A stretch of 64,000 bases of DNA from Enterobacteria phage Aplg8, in the sequence record NC_054902.1; one strand, given 5' to 3'. Under the pieces are notes generated by a model. That model was not told the DNA's origin, did no database searches, and saw nothing but the letters and a program-made list of their open reading frames with translations. Below, one piece after another: positions 13,538 through 64,000 of the stretch. Both the position numbers and the translations under genes were made by a program. The stretch's first letter is position 1. Every line of letters starts with the position of its first letter.

Positions 13538-13782
13538 TGGAAGGTTTAATTGAAGCTATTAAATCAAACGACCTCGTAGCCGCTCGTAAATTATTTGCTG
13601 AAGCCATGGCTGCAAGAACGATTGATTTAATTAAAGAAGAAAAAATCGCTATCGCTCGTAATTTCTTAATCGAAGGTGAAGAACCTGATGACGAGGATGA
13701 TGACGAAGACGAAGACGAAGATAGTGATGATAAAGACGACAAAAAAGACAAAGACTCTGACGAAGACGAGGATGATGAATAA
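13537..13782 (+). CDS. 67: prohead core protein gp67 with poly-acidic C-terminus
   Basis: 81-aa ORF; TAATG overlap with gene 20; C-terminal 35 residues almost entirely D/E. Confidence 0.85.
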
Positions 13783-32784: not shown

Positions 32785-32803
32785 GGGGACCTTTCGGTCC
32801 CCC
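32785..32803. terminator. bidirectional hairpin GGGGACC-TTTC-GGTCCCC between gene 54 and the convergent 96-aa ORF
   Basis: 7-bp GC stem flanked by A/T runs. Confidence 0.65.
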
Positions 32804-32809
32804 ATATTT

Positions 32810-33100
32810 TTATTTACGGAATGAAATAAAAGCAGCAACTGAAGCAACAGAGGTTTCTTCAATATAAACCTCAATTTTTACCGGAGCTTCTGACTCAAAT
32901 TTACCTGTTACTACACCCTGGAAAATGCTTTCAGTCTGTTCTGGCTTTGAAAAATTTTCAGAAGGAAAAATTCCAAACTTTTTATCGGTTCCGAAAATTT
33001 TAATAAATTCATCGTAAACTGCTTCATTAAAAGCATTATCAGCGGGAATAACGCCTTCAACGACGAGTTCTTGACCTAAAAAGCGCAAAGAAGATTTCAT
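32810..33100 (-). CDS. hypothetical protein (T4 alt.-3 position), early-promoter driven
   Basis: 96-aa ORF; GAGGA Shine-Dalgarno; preceded by the 54-bp promoter-leader cassette. Confidence 0.65.
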   Translation of the reverse strand: MKSSLRFLGQELVVEGVIPADNAFNEAVYDEFIKIFGTDKKFGIFPSENFSKPEQTESIFQGVVTGKFESEAPVKIEVYIEETSVASVAAFISFRK

Positions 33101-33131
33101 TTTGTGTTCCTCATGTTATGTCAGTAAGACT

Positions 33132-33160
33132 ACTATAACACAACACGAGGGACTTGTAAA
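33132..33160 (-). promoter_or_regulatory. sigma70-type early promoter (GTTTACA-N17-TATAGT), copy A of duplicated cassette
   Basis: minus-strand reading TTTACA agtccctcgtgttgtgt TATAGT, followed by a leader with GAGGA. Confidence 0.6.
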
Positions 33161-35218
33161 CTACATTTTGAACTTTTTAGACATTCCGTTGATGTTAACC
33201 AAAGAAGCTAAGATTTGAGAAACTTCGTTTTCCTCTTCTTTTGATTCTTCTACAAGGAATTGATTAAATCCAGCCATTAGACGAACTTCACCAGTTTCCA
33301 TTAGATGGTCGCCATCATATACTGATTCCTCTAATTGTTCAGAAGGAGGAACGATTGTACCTTCGATTAGATACTTGTTATAAGCAGTTTCTTTCATAAA
33401 GTAAGTACTTACTTTATTAATCTTCAGTAAAATTCCACGTGGTAGAATAACTTCAGCTTCTGATGGAAATCCTGATAAATGACCCGGAACGATAACTTTG
33501 ATTCGCTCAGCTCCTTTAATTACCATACCCACGCTAGTTTCAGCATCTTCATTAGCATATGTAGAATGACTACCCATATGCATCAAATCTTCTGCATCAA
33601 CGGAACCTTCTCCTTCACCAGAAAATACTGCTCCGGAATCATCTAAGGCCATATAATTTTTACCATACTCACCAAAGATATTTGGTTTAAGTGATGTCGA
33701 TACGAAGTTCTTGAAATAGAACATTTTATTTTCAATGTTATGACGCAAAGTTTTAAAAGTAACTTCTTGTCCACGGTAAAGTGTAGTTCCTGGAGGAAGA
33801 ACTGAACCTTTAGCGAATGCAGAATCAAGCGTCTCAATATGTTTAATAGCTCGTTCCATATATTCTTCACGGGTAGAATCTGGTTTACCCAAAAGGAACG
33901 AGTTCATTTCAACATATGAATCTGCGCAATAATCTTCAATTACGTCAGATTCAGCCTGAGTTAATCCTTTTGGAGTTACTTCGGTGCTTGCATATTCATA
34001 CGCCTGAGCAGCGGATTCATCAATTAATTTATAAATGCCATTCATGACAAATTGAATAATAGCTGTCTTTTCATCTGGCGTAGCTTTAGAACCTTTAACT
34101 AAATCATTGACAATTTTCTTAATAACATCAAAGCTATTAGAAATATTAATGTCAGCAAGATCGCTTAAAATTTTATCAGTTTTATAATCAAAAAATTCTT
34201 TATTCTTTAAATATTCTTGAGAACTTTGATATGTTATATCGCTCTGCAACTTGATAGATGGATCACGTAAACGTGCATGGGCTAATGCAATATGATTTCG
34301 GAAGCTTTCTAGTTCATAATCGTTAGATTTAAAACGAGAAGCACTTCTCATACCACCGATAGCTCCTTTGCTGAAGTTTGAACCAATCTGAATAACGCCA
34401 GAGTTCATTGGTCCTTCTGCTTTATATACCGGAACTTTAGATTCAAACTCTTGATATTTCTTAGCAGCGAAGCTATCACCCTGAAGTGAAGCATCAACAG
34501 TAGAATATTGAGCTTGTGCTGCTAATCGACGACTAATTTTAGTTTTCTGAATAACAGCTTGATCCGTACGCTTATCATTTTCTAAAGCAATAGAAGCAGC
34601 AACTGCGACAGCTTTAGGAACAGCATTACCTGTTTTAACGTCTACATAAACATCACCAACCTTTGATTCAACTTTTGTGAATAACTCAGTTGAAATAGGA
34701 GGTACACCTGGAATGTCTTCTAAATTGGCATTTTTACGGTAAACCATAATATATGCATATTTCTTATCATAGTCCCAGATTTCCTTTAAAAGAACATATC
34801 GACCTGCTCCTTTAGTACGTACTAAACGGTCAGCAATAACTTGCATTTGACGAGCTGCGCCATTTGTTTTACTCTTTAGTACGCGGAATAAGCATGCATC
34901 AATTTTATACTGTTTCATTGTTTGAAGAGCAGTATCAAAAACAGCATTAATGACGCCAATTGGATTTCCACCTAAGTTTTTAAGTTTAACTAATGATAAT
35001 TTCTCGTTGACACCTATCATTACGATATGCATCATTTTGTCGCCTGGCTTAACGTTTTTATTCGTATCACCGCCAGAGGTGTATGTACAAAATCTAAATC
35101 CAGGAAGCACGCTTTCTTCACCGGCTTGAATAGCAAAAATTTGAGGTATTTTATGCTTAGGATTTAAGTTAACAACCGGCGCCGAAGCGCCGTCAAATAA
35201 TTCTGTAATAAGTTCCAT
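33161..35218 (-). CDS. Alt-like ADP-ribosyltransferase paralog (T4 alt.-2/alt.-1 position)
   Basis: 685-aa ORF; N-terminus MELITELFDGASAPVVNLNPKHKIPQIF parallels Alt; C-terminal R-S-E motifs (LYRGQ, FVSTSL, SEAEVILPRG). Confidence 0.8.
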   Translation of the reverse strand: MELITELFDGASAPVVNLNPKHKIPQIFAIQAGEESVLPGFRFCTYTSGGDTNKNVKPGDKMMHIVMIGVNEKLSLVKLKNLGGNPIGVINAVFDTALQTMKQYKIDACLFRVLKSKTNGAARQMQVIADRLVRTKGAGRYVLLKEIWDYDKKYAYIMVYRKNANLEDIPGVPPISTELFTKVESKVGDVYVDVKTGNAVPKAVAVAASIALENDKRTDQAVIQKTKISRRLAAQAQYSTVDASLQGDSFAAKKYQEFESKVPVYKAEGPMNSGVIQIGSNFSKGAIGGMRSASRFKSNDYELESFRNHIALAHARLRDPSIKLQSDITYQSSQEYLKNKEFFDYKTDKILSDLADINISNSFDVIKKIVNDLVKGSKATPDEKTAIIQFVMNGIYKLIDESAAQAYEYASTEVTPKGLTQAESDVIEDYCADSYVEMNSFLLGKPDSTREEYMERAIKHIETLDSAFAKGSVLPPGTTLYRGQEVTFKTLRHNIENKMFYFKNFVSTSLKPNIFGEYGKNYMALDDSGAVFSGEGEGSVDAEDLMHMGSHSTYANEDAETSVGMVIKGAERIKVIVPGHLSGFPSEAEVILPRGILLKINKVSTYFMKETAYNKYLIEGTIVPPSEQLEESVYDGDHLMETGEVRLMAGFNQFLVEESKEEENEVSQILASLVNINGMSKKFKM

Positions 35219-35221
35219 GAT

Positions 35222-37315
35222 TTATCCTTGAACGAACTTGTAAGGCATGTTTGTAATATCTATGCAAGACGCAATAATTCCAAGAGATGATTCTACTTTC
35301 TGTTTAACATTTGATGAAACAAATGATGCAAAGTCAACTCTGTCTTCTATTTCAATATCACCTGTCATTGCAACTACTTCGCCAGTTTCCATTAAACGGT
35401 CACCGTCATAAATTACCGATTCGGTGAGTTCTTCGGTGGTCATAACTTCAGCTTGAATGAGTTTTGTATTATTAGACGTGGTTCCGTCATTATTAGAAGC
35501 ATCAGTTATTTTATTAACTTTGACCATCAATCCGCGCGGTAGAATAACTTCGGCTTCTGTTGCTATTCCGAGACTTCCTGGATATACAACATTAACTTTA
35601 TGAGCTCCATCAATTGCCCATCCTATTTGAACTTTAACGTATTCAGGATTTTCTTTATACGCTCTTATTTCGTTTGGATTAATAGTTATTCCTTCTTCAT
35701 TTTTATCAACTGTCAATTCATTACGAGCTTCTGGTTCTAAAAGACCAATACCAGCATGTGTAATTCCAAAACGTCCAAAAATGATAGGAGTTAAAGAAGT
35801 AGATACAAAATTTCTGAAATAGAACACTTTATTTTTAACTAGTGCTTCGTATATAGGAGCAGTCATACTTTGAGCACGATAAACTGTGATGCCTTCCGGT
35901 ATGCGGTCACCATTTTCAAAAGCTGAATCTAAGTTATTTATAGCAGATTCAATTTCTTTTTCACTCATTACATCATATCGTTCTGGATTGTAACGACCTA
36001 AAAGAAGATTATTGATGTCAGTATATCCTGAACCGCAATATTCTCTAATGCCACGCTTTTGTGATGGAGTATATTTAGAACCATCGCGGGCAATAGTAAT
36101 ATCAATCATTGGACCAGCACCAATTCCAGAAAAACTGTAAATCATTCGTTTGAGGAATTTAGTTTTTGCTGCGTTCCAGGAATTTTTAGTTATTTCTTCC
36201 CAGACTTCATCTGGTTGTCCTTTACGATTTTTATTATGATTAGCAAGCCATTTATCTTTATAATCTTCAAAGAATTGATTTACAGCTGCTGCGTATTTCT
36301 CTAAACATTTTATTGAAGTAGTTGGTTCATTTTTAATTGCATTAAAAATTACTTCTTTAATTTTTTCTGAAACTTCACCGACTTGACTCATTGGAAAGAA
36401 TTTATAATCATAGTGAAGTTCATCTGCCGTTCCTTTAGCAATAATTTTTGCTGCCTTTGTTTTAGAAGCTAATGAATTAATTCCAATTTTCATTTCTTCT
36501 GCTTCGGGAATTAAAGGTGCAGTAGCTGGTTTATTAAAATTAGCTGCTGTAGATTCATACTTCTGGAATAATTCACTTTCAAATCTAGAAGATTCCAATG
36601 ACTGACTTTGTGCAATTGCTCTACGGGAAATTTTAACTTTAACGATTACGGCTTGGTCAGAACGTTTATCATTTTCTTGTGCAATAGATGCAGCAATTGC
36701 CTCATTTTTGGTTACTTGAGCTCCAGTATCTTTATTGATATAAACATCACCGACTTTCGATTCAACTTTAGTAAAGAGCTCGGTACTAATTTCCGGAACT
36801 CCTGGAATGTCTTCTAGTGATACATTTTTACGATGTATAAGAATATATGCATACTTTTTATCGTAATCCCAGAGTTCCTTAAGAAGGACGTATCTGCCAC
36901 CTGAACGACTGCGGATGAGTCTATCAGCAATAAGTTGAATTTGTCGAGCTTGACCGGCGGTTTTAGACTTAAGAATACGGAGCATACAGGCATCAATTTT
37001 ATACTGACGCATCGTTTGCATCGCAACAGTAAAAACTGAATTGATGTAATTAATTGGGCTTGGACCGAGACCTTTTAATTTAGCAATTGAACCTTTAGCA
37101 GTTAATGTAAAAGGAACAATATGCATCATTTTATCGCCCATCTTTAAATCGCGATTAGTATCACCTCCAGATGTATAGGTACACAAACGAAAGCCTGGTT
37201 GTTCAATTGCGTCATCAACATGAACTGAAAAAATTTGCGGTATTTTCTTCTTTGGATTTAAGTTTGTAATCGGAAGAGTAGTATCTTCGTCAAATAATTC
37301 TGTAATGAGTTCCAT
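35222..37315 (-). CDS. alt: Alt ADP-ribosyltransferase (packaged, modifies host RNA polymerase)
   Basis: 697 aa from the second Met (MELITELFDEDTTLP...); R-S-E motifs (VYRAQ, FVSTSL, TEAEVILPRG); late promoter upstream. Confidence 0.88.
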   Translation of the reverse strand: MELITELFDEDTTLPITNLNPKKKIPQIFSVHVDDAIEQPGFRLCTYTSGGDTNRDLKMGDKMMHIVPFTLTAKGSIAKLKGLGPSPINYINSVFTVAMQTMRQYKIDACMLRILKSKTAGQARQIQLIADRLIRSRSGGRYVLLKELWDYDKKYAYILIHRKNVSLEDIPGVPEISTELFTKVESKVGDVYINKDTGAQVTKNEAIAASIAQENDKRSDQAVIVKVKISRRAIAQSQSLESSRFESELFQKYESTAANFNKPATAPLIPEAEEMKIGINSLASKTKAAKIIAKGTADELHYDYKFFPMSQVGEVSEKIKEVIFNAIKNEPTTSIKCLEKYAAAVNQFFEDYKDKWLANHNKNRKGQPDEVWEEITKNSWNAAKTKFLKRMIYSFSGIGAGPMIDITIARDGSKYTPSQKRGIREYCGSGYTDINNLLLGRYNPERYDVMSEKEIESAINNLDSAFENGDRIPEGITVYRAQSMTAPIYEALVKNKVFYFRNFVSTSLTPIIFGRFGITHAGIGLLEPEARNELTVDKNEEGITINPNEIRAYKENPEYVKVQIGWAIDGAHKVNVVYPGSLGIATEAEVILPRGLMVKVNKITDASNNDGTTSNNTKLIQAEVMTTEELTESVIYDGDRLMETGEVVAMTGDIEIEDRVDFASFVSSNVKQKVESSLGIIASCIDITNMPYKFVQG

Positions 37316-37338
37316 CATATCCTCTCTAGTGTTTATTC

Positions 37339-42085: not shown

Positions 42086-42118
42086 ATAATACTATCACAA
42101 AGGAACCATACTGTAAAC
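42086..42118 (-). promoter_or_regulatory. early promoter (GTTTAC-N18-TGaTAGTAT)
   Basis: minus-strand reading GTTTAC agtatggttcctttgtga TAGTAT upstream of the 110-aa ORF. Confidence 0.5.
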
Positions 42119-47536: not shown

Positions 47537-47886
47537 TTAGAAAGGTCCTGGATGTCTTCTGCGAACTTGTTGAAGGAGTTGTTGATTTGTTTTTCAACCA
47601 ATCCTGGCTTATGAGCCACCACATCCGCCTTCTTTGCGTCTTTGCGCAGTTTTTCATTTTCACGCTCAATAGCAGCAATTGCCTCACGATTTTTATTATT
47701 CATCGCATCAATATAATTATACTGAATTCGCAAATTATTTAATGCTAAGGCGTTTTCATTGGCCGTTTTTGTAATTTCTACAACAGACGTTTCTAATCTT
47801 TCAATTTTATTTTTTAAAATTAAAGAAGTTCCGCCTAATGCAATTACAATTAATAGCAAACCTGCTGTCGTATTACTTAATTGCAT
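47533..47886 (-). CDS. putative i-spanin (N-terminal transmembrane helix + coiled coil)
   Basis: 117-aa ORF; hydrophobic segment AGLLLIVIALGGTSLIL followed by helical charged region. Confidence 0.7.
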   Translation of the reverse strand: MQLSNTTAGLLLIVIALGGTSLILKNKIERLETSVVEITKTANENALALNNLRIQYNYIDAMNNKNREAIAAIERENEKLRKDAKKADVVAHKPGLVEKQINNSFNKFAEDIQDLSK

Positions 47887-48383
47887 AAAGTTTTAATAAC
47901 CTCTATAATATCGTCTTGAGAAAGACCGTTAATTAAAATATGATGTTCAGCTGGAGATTTAGAAATTTTAAAGCATGCCTCAACATCTTCTGCCATATCC
48001 GATGCACTACGATTTGGATTACTAATACCAAGGCGGTGTTTTCCCGTCAAAGGATTAACGATGATATAGCATTTGCAGCTATTGATATGAACATTGGGTT
48101 GAGTCTGATTAATGAACACTTCACAATCATACTTAGCGAGTTGATTTTCTAAAAAGACTTTCATCTCTTCAACCGCATCAGGAAGCATATCACGGGCTTG
48201 CTCAAGACGACGATTTCGATATTCTTTAATGGTCGTTTTCCGCTTGACTTGCTTAGCTAAATCTTTCTTAAGATCGGTGATATATCCAACTCGACGATTT
48301 CCTTTGAATACAGAAATCCCATCTGTAGTATCACCGTATGCTTCAACGACCATTTCAGTAGTAATAAGTTGTAAATCCATCAT
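47877..48383 (-). CDS. alc: Alc, inhibitor of host transcription on cytosine DNA
   Basis: 168-aa ORF in the T4 position between rnlA and the spanin/pseT cluster; early promoter cassette upstream. Confidence 0.75.
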   Translation of the reverse strand: MMDLQLITTEMVVEAYGDTTDGISVFKGNRRVGYITDLKKDLAKQVKRKTTIKEYRNRRLEQARDMLPDAVEEMKVFLENQLAKYDCEVFINQTQPNVHINSCKCYIIVNPLTGKHRLGISNPNRSASDMAEDVEACFKISKSPAEHHILINGLSQDDIIEVIKTLCN

Positions 48384-48411
48384 AAAGTCCTCATGTTATG
48401 TCAGTAAGACT

Positions 48412-48440
48412 ACTGTAACACAACACGAGGGACTTGTAAA
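48412..48440 (-). promoter_or_regulatory. sigma70-type early promoter (GTTTACA-N17-TACAGT), copy B of duplicated cassette
   Basis: 53/54 identical to the cassette at 33108-33161; directly upstream of the alc start. Confidence 0.6.
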
Positions 48441-48444
48441 CAGC

Positions 48445-50032
<1,588 letters not shown>

Positions 50033-57515: not shown

Positions 57516-57549
57516 GGCTATAGTATCACTACCATAGCCTGTTGTAAAC
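57516..57549 (-). promoter_or_regulatory. early promoter (GTTTAC-N18-TACTAT) with -10 inside a 10-bp inverted repeat
   Basis: plus GGCTATAGTA tcac TACCATAGCC; minus-strand -35 at 57544-57549. Confidence 0.55.
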
Positions 57550-61887: not shown

Positions 61888-64000
61888 ATGGCCGAGATTA
61901 AAAGAAAGTTCAGAGCAGAAGACGGTCTGGACGCAGGTGGCGATAAAATAATCAACGTAGCTTTAGCTGATCGTGCCGTAGGAACTGACGGTGTTAACGT
62001 TGATTACCTAATTCAAGAAAACACAGTTCAACAATACGATCCAACTCGTGGATATTTAAAAGATTTTGTAATCATTTATGATAACCGCTTTTGGGCTGCT
62101 ATAAATGATATTCCAAAACCGGCAGGAGCTTTTAATAGCGGACGCTGGAGAGCATTACGTACCGATGCTAACTGGATTACAGTCTCATCTGGTTCATATC
62201 AATTAAAATCTGGTGAAGCTATTTCGGTTAACACTGCAGCTGGTAATGATATTACATTTACTTTACCATCTTCTCCAATTGACGGTGATACTATCGTTCT
62301 CCAAGATATTGGAGGAAAACCTGGAGTTAACCAAGTTTTAATTGTAGCTCCAGTGCAAAGTATTGTAAACTTCAGAGGTCAACAAGTACGTTCAGTACTA
62401 ATGACTCATCCAAAATCGCAGATAGTTTTAATTTTTAGTAATCGTCTGTGGCAAATGTATGTTGCCGATTATAGTAGAGAAGCTGTCGTTGTAACACCAG
62501 CAAGTCTCTATCAGGCGCAATCTAATGATTTTATCGTACGTAGATTTACTTCTGCTGCACCAATTAATGTTAAACTTCCAAGATTTGCTAATCATGGCGA
62601 TATTATTAATTTCGTTGATTTAGATAAACTGAATCCACTTTATCATACAATTGTTACTACATACGATGAAACGACTTCAGTACAAGAAGTTGGAACTCAT
62701 TCCATTGAAGGCCGTACATCAATTGACGGTTTCTTGATGTTTGATGATAATGAGAAATTATGGAGATTGTTTGACGGGGACAGTAAAGCACGTTTACGTA
62801 TCATAACGACTAATTCAAATATTCGTCCAAACGAAGAAGTTATGGTATTTGGTGCAAATAACGGAACAACTCAAACGATTGAGCTTCAGCTTCCAACTAA
62901 TATTTCTGTTGGTGATACTGTTAAAATTTCCATGAATTACATGAGAAAAGGACAAACAGTTAAAATCAAAGCTGCCGGTGAAGATAAAATTGCTTCTTCA
63001 GTTCAATTGCTGCAATTCCCAAAACGTTCAGAATATCCGCCTGAAGCTGAATGGGTGACTGTTCAAGAATTAGTTTTTAACGGTGAAACTAATTATGTTC
63101 CAGTTTTACAGCTTGCTTATATCGAAGATTCCGATGGAAAATATTGGGTTGTACAGCAAAACGTTCCAACTGTAGAAAGAGTAGACTCTTTAAATAATTC
63201 TACTAGAGCAAGATTAGGCGTAATTGCTTTAGCTACACAAGCTCAAGCTAATGTCGATTTAGAAAATTCTCCACAAAAAGAATTAGCAATTACTCCAGAA
63301 ACGTTAGCTAATCGTACTGCTACTGAAACTCGCAGAGGTATTGCAAGAATAGCAACTACTGCTCAAGTGAATCAGAACACCACATTCTCTTTTGCTGATG
63401 ATATTATCATCACTCCTAAAAAGCTGAATGAAAGAACTGCTACAGAAACTCGCAGAGGTGTCGCAGAAATTGCTACACAACAGGAAACTAATACAGGTAC
63501 TGATGATACTACAATCATCACTCCTAAAAAGCTTCAAGCTCGTCAAGGTTCTGAATCATTATCTGGTATTGTAACTTTTGTATCTACTGCAGGAGCTACT
63601 CCAGCTTCTAGTCGTGAATTAAATGGTACGAATGTTTATAATAAAAACACTAATAATTTAGTTGTTTCACCTAAAGCTTTGGATCAGTATAAAGCTACTC
63701 CAACACAGCAAGGTGCAGTAATTTTAGCAGTTGAAAGTGAAGTAATTGCTGGACAAAGCCAAGAAGGATGGGCAAATGCGGTTGTAACGCCAGAAACGTT
63801 ACATAAAAAGACATCAACTGATGCAAGAATTGGTTTAATTGAAATTGCTACGCAAAGTGAAGTTAATACAGGAACTGATTATACTCGTGCAGTCACTCCT
63901 AAAACTTTAAATGACCGTAGAGCAACTGAAAGTTTAAGTGGTATAGCTGAAATTGCTACACAAGTTGAATTCGACGTAGGCGTCGACGATACTCGTATCT
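61888..64000 (+). CDS. 34: long tail fibre proximal subunit gp34 (5' partial, continues beyond window)
   Basis: open frame from the ATG at 61888 (MAEIKRKFRAEDGLDAGGDKIINVALADRAV...) to the window end, about 704 codons; repeated TETRRGIA.IAT..E.N.GTDDT..ITPK.L motifs; absent from the ORF track because it has no in-window stop. Confidence 0.9.
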   Translation, partial: MAEIKRKFRAEDGLDAGGDKIINVALADRAVGTDGVNVDYLIQENTVQQYDPTRGYLKDFVIIYDNRFWAAINDIPKPAGAFNSGRWRALRTDANWITVSSGSYQLKSGEAISVNTAAGNDITFTLPSSPIDGDTIVLQDIGGKPGVNQVLIVAPVQSIVNFRGQQVRSVLMTHPKSQIVLIFSNRLWQMYVADYSREAVVVTPASLYQAQSNDFIVRRFTSAAPINVKLPRFANHGDIINFVDLDKLNPLYHTIVTTYDETTSVQEVGTHSIEGRTSIDGFLMFDDNEKLWRLFDGDSKARLRIITTNSNIRPNEEVMVFGANNGTTQTIELQLPTNISVGDTVKISMNYMRKGQTVKIKAAGEDKIASSVQLLQFPKRSEYPPEAEWVTVQELVFNGETNYVPVLQLAYIEDSDGKYWVVQQNVPTVERVDSLNNSTRARLGVIALATQAQANVDLENSPQKELAITPETLANRTATETRRGIARIATTAQVNQNTTFSFADDIIITPKKLNERTATETRRGVAEIATQQETNTGTDDTTIITPKKLQARQGSESLSGIVTFVSTAGATPASSRELNGTNVYNKNTNNLVVSPKALDQYKATPTQQGAVILAVESEVIAGQSQEGWANAVVTPETLHKKTSTDARIGLIEIATQSEVNTGTDYTRAVTPKTLNDRRATESLSGIAEIATQVEFDVGVDDTRI

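Follow-up and report, generated by a model that had tools for sequence, protein, structure and literature searches.

Why does a phage genome keep the same 54-bp early promoter and leader at two places, and what is this short piece of DNA built to do? The question is raised by Enterobacteria phage Aplg8 (NC_054902.1), of which we analysed a stretch of 64,000 nucleotides (the window) that carries one copy of the cassette upstream of alc (copy B) and another upstream of alt.-3 (copy A). Alc switches off transcription of the host within minutes of the start of infection, and the confinement of its synthesis to this short period is part of the T4 takeover programme. Sense-strand folding indicates that the cassette is also an imperfect palindrome of about 22 bp, in which the promoter spacer and the −10 element pair with the leader and its GAGGA Shine–Dalgarno (SD) sequence, and the pairing at alc recurs across genera. 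The reading that we lean towards, with a little more belief than doubt, is a model in which this hairpin would hide the alc ribosome site on read-through RNA while RNA begun at the cassette's own promoter stays open, so that Alc would come mainly from its own transcripts.

The elements on which this reading turns are as follows.

48388..48441, minus strand: 54-bp cassette copy B, −35 through Shine–Dalgarno, upstream of alc (53/54 match to copy A)
33108..33161, minus strand: 54-bp cassette copy A, upstream of alt.-3 (53/54 match to copy B)
48436..48441, minus strand: −35 element GTTTAC (promoter scan; detected hexamer TTTACA at 48440-48435)
48412..48420, minus strand: extended −10, comprising TG (48420-48419), n and TACAGT (48417-48412), behind a 17-bp spacer
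48405, minus strand: predicted transcription start, an A 7 nt past the −10, by the sigma-70 spacing rule
48411..48435, minus strand: predicted hairpin 5′ arm, formed by promoter spacer and −10 and present only in transcripts begun upstream
48407..48410, minus strand: predicted hairpin loop GUCU
48385..48406, minus strand: predicted hairpin 3′ arm, formed by initial transcribed region, leader and SD
48388..48392, minus strand: alc Shine–Dalgarno GAGGA, fully paired in the read-through fold

Folded as sense-strand RNA, the copy B region (48375-48450) has a minimum free energy of −28.6 kcal/mol, compared with −14.4 ± 2.6 for shuffled sequences (z = −5.39, 0 of 200 as good); the part from −36 to the AUG folds at −25.7 kcal/mol, and copy A at −23.0 kcal/mol (z = −3.8). 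All 12 of the 12 positions from −15 to −4 of the alc AUG are paired in the predicted fold. By the sigma-70 spacing rule the start at 48405 sits in the 3′ half of the apical helix, just past the loop, and because this would leave the 3′ arm alone, the promoter's own RNA is predicted to be unstructured: RNAs cut near the start site fold at −5.6 and −2.5 kcal/mol, with z about 0. The stem is longer in the alc copy, as repeat bases 7-9 (AAG) pair there, and at the alc site only, with a non-repeated CUU after GAGGA. The T4-type stem contains a bulge and two G·U pairs, which become C·A mismatches on the other strand, and the T4-type sequence folds at −25.7 kcal/mol in the sense and −17.9 kcal/mol in the antisense direction, a comparison that is decisive for this sequence type only and points, for the T4-type hairpin, to a role in RNA rather than in DNA. 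A scan for intrinsic terminators found no site at either copy, and Rfam 15 returned no family at gathering score, its sole match being a plant microRNA precursor that we attribute to chance (16.8 bits where the gathering score is 117; E 0.72). The cassette had earlier been described, from the sequence alone, as promoter plus leader; promoter, leader and SD are all there, and the palindrome that they also form has to be added.

Covariation that spans genera suggests that the pairing at the alc promoter is selected. A search of IMG/VR with Alc gave six near-identical Tequatrovirus loci, useless for covariation, and was replaced by tblastn of a phage collection together with single regions. The pairing is present in Gelderlandvirus, Karamvirus, Jiaodavirus, Dhakavirus (two phages), Roskildevirus, Bragavirus, Winklervirus and Kanagawavirus. 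Within a few bases of the rnlA stop codon, each of these eight genera has GTTTACA followed directly by an anti-SD run (TCTCC, TCCTC, ACCTC or ATCCC), which together with the next spacer bases pairs with the SD (GGAGA, GAGGA, GAGAGG or GGGGA) and the leader; the inner stem sequences vary from genus to genus while the pairing stays. The SD is paired in 10 of 10 alc folds across genera, and the stems of the other genera measure 16–21 bp. Because MAFFT set the 3′ arms of Bp7, Cronus and phiP4-3 out of register when it aligned the promoter-leader regions, we used an alignment-free folding test in which each promoter's 5′ half was joined to every other's 3′ half. Cognate halves averaged −20.4 kcal/mol and non-cognate halves −12.0 kcal/mol; the cognate mean was reached in 1 of 100,000 permutations, which is not a clean probability as the sequences are related, although the effect is large.

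The copies themselves are identical at 53 of 54 bases, as found by a repeat finder and by a mismatch-tolerant pattern search, which agree on exactly two copies within the window; 100 dinucleotide-preserving shuffles of the window yielded zero matches to the cassette. On the minus strand, which is the coding strand, it reads GTTTACAAGTCCCTCGTGTTGTGTTA[C/T]AGTAGTCTTACTGACATAACATGAGGA, where the bracket marks the mismatch base. It falls at position 3 of the −10 hexamer, which is TACAGT in copy B but reads TATAGT in copy A (33137-33132, minus strand), and appears on the plus strand as G at 48415 and A at 33135. The sequence-only reading had made copy B the partner of 33108-33161 with a sole difference in the −10, and both points are borne out. 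Identity is lost abruptly at either edge (48387 g against 33107 t; 48442 a against 33162 t). A match of 53/54 goes far beyond a shared promoter consensus, because seven other early-type promoters on the same strand of the window have a mean of 24.6/54 and a maximum of 36/54 ungapped positions in common among themselves or with the cassette.

The window belongs to Tequatrovirus and is 98–99% identical to many T4-like coliphages. Both copies are present in T4, where the alc copy has TATAGT and the alt.-3 copy one leader change. Megablast with the 54-mer misses copies having the central mismatch, which leaves no 28-nt exact word, and the search was therefore redone in blastn mode: among 50,697 phage records the cassette was found in 498, at 995 places or about two per genome, all with at least 90% identity, and blastn found a third copy in none of these 498 Tequatrovirus records. 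With 995 places in 498 records and no third copy, the cassette pair is fixed across the genus. The TACAGT variant occurs in about 149 records and, among the matches listed, nearly always at the alc site only.

Compensatory changes within Tequatrovirus also point to a selected pairing. Pair 27/40, which joins position 3 of the −10 to its partner, is C–G at alc in the window, U·G at alt.-3 in the window and at alc in T4, and U–A at alt.-3 in T4. Pair 15/50 passes from C–G through U·G (T6 alt.-3) to U–A (phage GBLB0003 alt.-3), and G16·U49 becomes A–U in several Tequatrovirus phages. Three changes in the genus break a pair, and one makes TATAGT a perfect TATAAT.

As promoters, both copies have the T4-type early (sigma-70) signature of GTTTAC, a 17-bp spacer, TGn and a −10, with a GAGGA SD 4–7 nt ahead of the start codon, and the same GTTTACA lies upstream of alc in 12 other T4-like phages. 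RNA sequencing (RNA-seq) of a motA amber infection at 5 min has alc RNA up 1.6-fold, alt.-3 RNA up 2.4-fold and rnlA RNA down (PMC6024815 supplement), which is indirect evidence that fits MotA-independent early promoters at the alc and alt.-3 loci. A T4-type early promoter upstream of alc, as had been proposed from the sequence, is thus upheld by elements, spacing and orientation, and by RNA-seq values like those of early genes. The further proposal that the −10 base tunes strength stands in part. TATAGT matches TATAAT at 5/6 positions and TACAGT at 4/6, and TACAGT, one step further away, may be the weaker promoter; the variant is not readable as promoter tuning alone, however, because the same base turns an apical U·G into a C–G pair, and the flanks differ as well. 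The repeat ends at the G of GTTTAC, and the copies differ completely upstream of −36, so that the UP-element region is not common to them: copy A has UP-like A-tracts outside the repeat (AAAA at −41 to −44, AAAAA at −49 to −53), and copy B is flanked upstream by the last part of the rnlA coding sequence, where A occurs only here and there. As the UP-element region lies outside the repeat, these flanks probably weigh no less than the −10 base in setting the relative strength of the copies.

Each copy occupies a gap between two genes: copy B that between the rnlA TAA stop (48447-48445) and the tandem ATG ATG of alc (48383-48378), and copy A that between the TAG stop (33161-33163) of a full-length alt paralogue and the ATG of alt.-3 (33100). 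Pfam and synteny with T4 confirm the identities of Alc, RnlA, Alt.-3 (DUF5498) and the ADP-ribosyltransferase paralogue, and with them the earlier placing of the gene downstream of copy B at the alc position.

47877..48383, minus strand: alc coding sequence, with tandem ATG ATG of which the T4 annotation uses the second, at 48380 (PF17527, E 7.8e-92; T4 synteny)
48445..49569, minus strand: rnlA (RNA ligase 1), TAA stop 3 nt upstream of GTTTAC (Pfam, T4 synteny)
32810..33100, minus strand: alt.-3 (DUF5498), the gene served by copy A (Pfam, T4 synteny)
33161..35218, minus strand: full-length alt paralogue (ADP-ribosyltransferase), whose TAG stop overlaps the first base of copy A (Pfam)

Some observations concern these immediate surroundings. 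The AUG within the leader (in CAUGAGGA) opens a mini open reading frame (ORF) of 4–5 codons at 48392-48378 and 33112-33095 (minus strand), which in both copies ends in a UGA that overlaps the real start codon (AUGA); having no SD in front, it is probably a coincidence. Upstream of copy A, two full-length alt-type ADP-ribosyltransferase genes of 685 and 698 amino acids stand in tandem (33161-35218 and 35222-37318, minus strand), with DNA blocks 70–76% similar at a constant spacing of about 2094 bp (repeat families D3–D9 and D13); alt.-1 and alt.-2 of T4 are the decayed remains of the downstream gene. On the other side of alt.-3, a perfect G+C-rich hairpin at 32785-32802, GGGGACCGAAAGGTCCCC, lies between the convergent genes 54 (plus strand) and alt.-3 (minus strand) and is flagged as terminator-like on both strands, and is thus likely to be a bidirectional terminator.

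How, then, could the hairpin act? RNA that reads through from rnlA, denA and nrdB would carry both arms and fold into the hairpin of about 22 bp, burying GAGGA, and ribosomes would be unable to start on alc. RNA from the cassette promoter would begin just 3′ of the loop, without the 5′ arm, and its ribosome site would be open. Alc synthesis would in this way be tied to its own immediate-early promoter and would end with early-promoter shut-off, whatever the level of read-through; at copy A, the same logic would keep alt.-3 silent on transcripts that come through the upstream alt genes. Start site, translational block and biological purpose are alike parts of the model, drawn from predicted fold energies, promoter spacing and the comparison of sequences. 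The read-through RNA is plausibly present, because rnlA RNA is abundant at 5 min (PMC6024815 supplement). Two other processes at the junction were considered and set aside. Translational coupling to rnlA termination is unlikely, as the first paired base lies about 10 nt past the stop and by our estimate the terminating ribosome would open at most the outermost pairs. RegB cleavage is not expected at the T4-type SD, GAGGA, which is without GGAG; several other genera do have GGAG.

The alc cassette may be the most pronounced case of a wider design. A scan of T4, confined to the parts that belong to the early strand, gave 32 candidate promoters of the GTTTAC type with an SD and an ORF behind them, in which cognate promoter and leader halves fold at a mean of −13.8 kcal/mol, against −9.3 kcal/mol for mismatched halves (z = −9.2, 0 of 200,000 permutations). 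An anti-SD tetramer is found in 14 of the 32 spacers and in 10.7% of random 17-mers from the same strand (p = 2e-6), and the SD is masked in a stable fold by bases upstream of the start site in 11 of the 32 cognate sequences as against 15.8% of chimeras. Among the surveyed T4 early promoters the alc cassette has the most stable fold; masked SDs also occur upstream of motB.2, modB, mrh.2, nrdC.8, mobD.5, regB, denV, 30.8 and ndd.4 (masked-SD promoters at T4 coordinates 8218, 13186, 15288, 53943, 58780, 62797, 65413, 130310 and 166807). It is accordingly a tentative thought, possible though short of probable, that a sizeable fraction of T4-type early promoters encode an anti-SD arm in the spacer and that translatability is set by transcript origin, which we call transcript-origin gating. 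In the window, four other early promoters on the minus strand, with a −35 at 57548, 45134, 42117 and 41725, have hairpins that straddle the −10 and start (−15.6, −18.2, −12.1 and −19.4 kcal/mol); AAGGAG is buried as well in the hairpin at 42117, which is the promoter of 30.8 in T4, and those at 57548, 45134 and 41725 leave the SD free.

Several findings speak against the translational reading of the alc hairpin. In Mosigvirus and Providencia phage PSTCR6 the alc hairpins stop short of the SD, and in Gaprivervirus and Acj9 rnlA and alc are separated by an extra ORF. In the other genera the sense and antisense strands fold with about the same stability, so that the hairpin may there act in either RNA or DNA. 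In wild-type infection at 5 min, read density is 12.9 per nt over alc and 21.2 over rnlA (PMC6024815 supplement), and this lower density over alc, despite its own promoter, fits partial termination or processing at the rnlA–alc junction just as well and suggests that some transcripts end or are cut there. Finally, about eight T4 early promoters (dmd, mobD.2, ipI, ipII, 30.7 and others) have straddling hairpins that leave the SD free, and because of these the hairpin class may be there for some other purpose, and the burial of the SD may simply come with long stems.

What that other purpose might be has a published precedent in the early-promoter stem-loop (PeSL) cassettes of T4-like phages. 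An attenuator or insulator of this type, in which the hairpin weakens transcription arriving from rnlA (or alt) or protects the 3′ end of the upstream mRNA and SD burial is incidental, is in our judgement unlikely, while deserving real weight. One PeSL stem-loop cut lacZ expression about as much as a strong terminator (Arbiol et al. 2010, PMC2839356), PeSLs are extended to the PST/T4 pair by Comeau et al. 2014 (PMC4122927), many T4 early-promoter hairpins do not touch the SD, and RNA-seq density falls from rnlA to alc at 5 min. At copy B, moreover, the base of the stem, GGAC, runs on into UUUAUGAU, which has 5 U in 8 nt, including UUUAU. However, copy A (GGAACACAAAAUG) has no U-tract after its stem, and neither do the alc hairpins of the eight other genera; the terminator scan is negative at both copies, and the stems are rich in A–U and G·U pairs, unlike the G+C-rich PeSLs of RB49. 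What is conserved across genera is anti-SD:SD pairing, which a terminator does not need. The stricter version, an intrinsic terminator, was rejected for want of a conserved U-tract and on the negative scan. Read-through RNA might also be processed, if RNase III or another double-strand-specific enzyme cut it within the 22-bp stem; the rnlA message would then be parted from that of alc, and the alc ribosome site put out of action. Phage RNase III sites, for example the early sites of T7, are stems of about two helical turns, and the alc stem, about two turns with small bulges, is of the right size class; read-through RNA left untranslated for alc would also match the conserved involvement of the SD. 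Against such a cut, the stems of other genera (16–21 bp) are in several cases shorter than typical substrates, and RNase III is not known to have a large part in T4 mRNA processing; we consider it improbable.

The palindrome might instead act in DNA, as a cruciform that modulates promoter opening or as a site of cassette exchange through PeSL-mediated shuffling and mini-circles. Both strands fold about equally in most genera, PeSLs recombine and form mini-circles in RB49 and phi1 (PMC2839356), and the cassette was clearly copied between two loci once. The bulge and the G·U pairs that turn into C·A mismatches in the T4-type stem would make a poor cruciform, though, and in 498 genomes the copies number exactly two, stand at the same two loci and show no trace of rearrangement; the variants are locus-specific rather than homogenised, and a deletion between the copies would remove genes 30 and 31. 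We give a DNA-level element little chance. Smaller still is the chance of a plain duplicated early promoter with a functionless palindrome and a −10 base that tunes strength: the textbook T4 early elements and the 5/6 and 4/6 matches to TATAAT suit it, but nine-genus covariation, compensation within the genus and the genome-wide excess of cognate pairing are unexpected if the pairing is incidental. Should the hairpins prove to be attenuators, the data would still indicate strong, genus-spanning selection on a structure embedded in a promoter.

As to how the second copy arose, the SD-masking type of cassette stands at the alc site in most genera, whereas the alt.-3 gene of Gaprivervirus, Mosigvirus, Marfavirus and Karamvirus is preceded by another cassette, whose small hairpin (CACA-TGGA-TGTG type) does not extend beyond the spacer. 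Comparison of these sites, together with the longer stem of the alc copy, makes it most likely that the cassette originated at alc and that a single copying event took it to alt.-3 in the ancestor of Tequatrovirus. As the variants are now locus-specific, there is no sign of ongoing homogenization, and the copies have probably stayed near-identical because almost every base belongs to a promoter element, a stem arm or the SD. A second exchange, suggested by the likeness of the Mosigvirus alc and alt.-3 promoters (78%, gapped), was dropped when unrelated early cassettes were found to reach 73–76%.

Two other hairpin types were met in the same surroundings. The spacer-hairpin cassette is itself recurrent, with a 4–5-bp hairpin wholly inside the spacer (CACA/CCAC ... 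GTG/GTGG) and an SD-like loop, AAGGA or TGGA; it was seen upstream of alt.-3 in VR20, NHEP10, F48 and PG7, upstream of alc in Mosigvirus, and at the T4 promoters 2458 and 50973. In VR25, GGGGTGTACAAGCCCC and then TTCTTTCT lie between rnlA and the extra ORF, at positions 285-330 of the retrieved alc upstream region; they form a hairpin that has a G/C stem, a U-tract and, within its loop, a −35-like TGTACA, and a −10-like CATAAT comes next. Unlike the alc hairpin, this is a classic terminator-type PeSL.

Elsewhere in the window, a run of GAC, GAA and GAT codons with 9–12-nt periodicity at 13678-13778 (plus strand; family D1) would give a tract of Asp and Glu that is highly acidic. A 71-nt unit occurs four times at 63290-63963 (plus strand), in copies 61–73% identical and spaced by 120, 375 and 108 nt, with related shorter repeats at 1124-1333 (families D2, D11, D17 and D20); they look like internal repeats of a structural, fibre-like gene.

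If the preferred reading of the alc hairpin is right, a single 54-bp module both starts transcription and lets only its own transcripts be translated, which would amount to a compact and portable means of immediate-early-only expression where transcription reads through many genes, and to a part for phage engineering. Under transcript-origin gating more widely, Alc, Alt.-3, RegB, ModB, DenV, MotB.2 and 30.8 would be made in the immediate-early burst only, and none of the long read-through RNAs, whether delayed-early, middle or late, would yield those proteins, in mirror image of the late-gene hairpins. This would offer a cis-encoded account of part of the shut-off of early protein synthesis and of the distinction between immediate-early and delayed-early expression. 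With the SD-masking design at about a third of the T4 early promoter candidates surveyed, it could be a general and previously unremarked layer of early control.

Much of the setting is known already: no phage genome is better studied than the one that holds the T4 early promoters, and PeSL cassettes have been published as a class. The cassette shares with T4 early promoters (Pe) the GTTTAC, the 17-bp spacer, the TGn and the −10, an initial transcribed region rich in A and C, and an SD of the GAGG type. Complementarity between spacer and leader is absent from the published Pe consensus descriptions examined, and Nolan et al. 2006 is without the words 'stem', 'dyad' and 'palindrome'. Our literature search found no account of SD masking by early-promoter hairpins, of the conservation at alc or of an anti-SD bias in spacers, although older T4 sources lay outside its reach and a prior description is possible.

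With PeSL cassettes the alc element shares an early sigma-70-type promoter, a stem-loop over the spacer and −10, an SD at the 3′ end and repetition in the genome (PMC2839356, PMC4122927). It fits the PST/T4 PeSL consensus TTTACW-N17-TAYWAT given in PMC4122927, which describes the PST/T4 stems as lying just upstream of the promoter. PeSL stem-loops have been read as terminators or attenuators, and the PeSL papers (PMC2839356, PMC4122927) never mention translation; the translational reading, if true, would be a new functional one for them. Unlike PeSLs, the cassette has a 3′ arm made of leader and SD, no conserved U-tract, and a pairing kept at one orthologous site across genera. PeSLs cluster in hyperplastic regions beside ORFans and mediate insertions and deletions, whereas between the two copies of the cassette lie 15 kb of conserved genes, and the pair is a fixed feature of 498 genomes, with variants that are locus-specific; copy A, for its part, borders the alt paralogue that has decayed to alt.-1 and alt.-2 in T4.

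In its proposed mechanism the cassette resembles the T4 genes e, soc, 49 and I-TevI, in which the SD, the AUG or both lie in a helix on long transcripts and a late promoter sits inside the 5′ arm, so that early read-through RNA is silent and late RNA active (PMC3014915). At alc, too, the SD is predicted to be paired in RNA started upstream, and the RNA of the internal promoter is predicted to lack the 5′ arm. The internal promoters of those genes are late (TATAAATA), whereas that of the alc cassette is of the early −35/−10 type, and because it is early the timing would be reversed: its own immediate-early RNA would be active, and the later, longer RNA silent.

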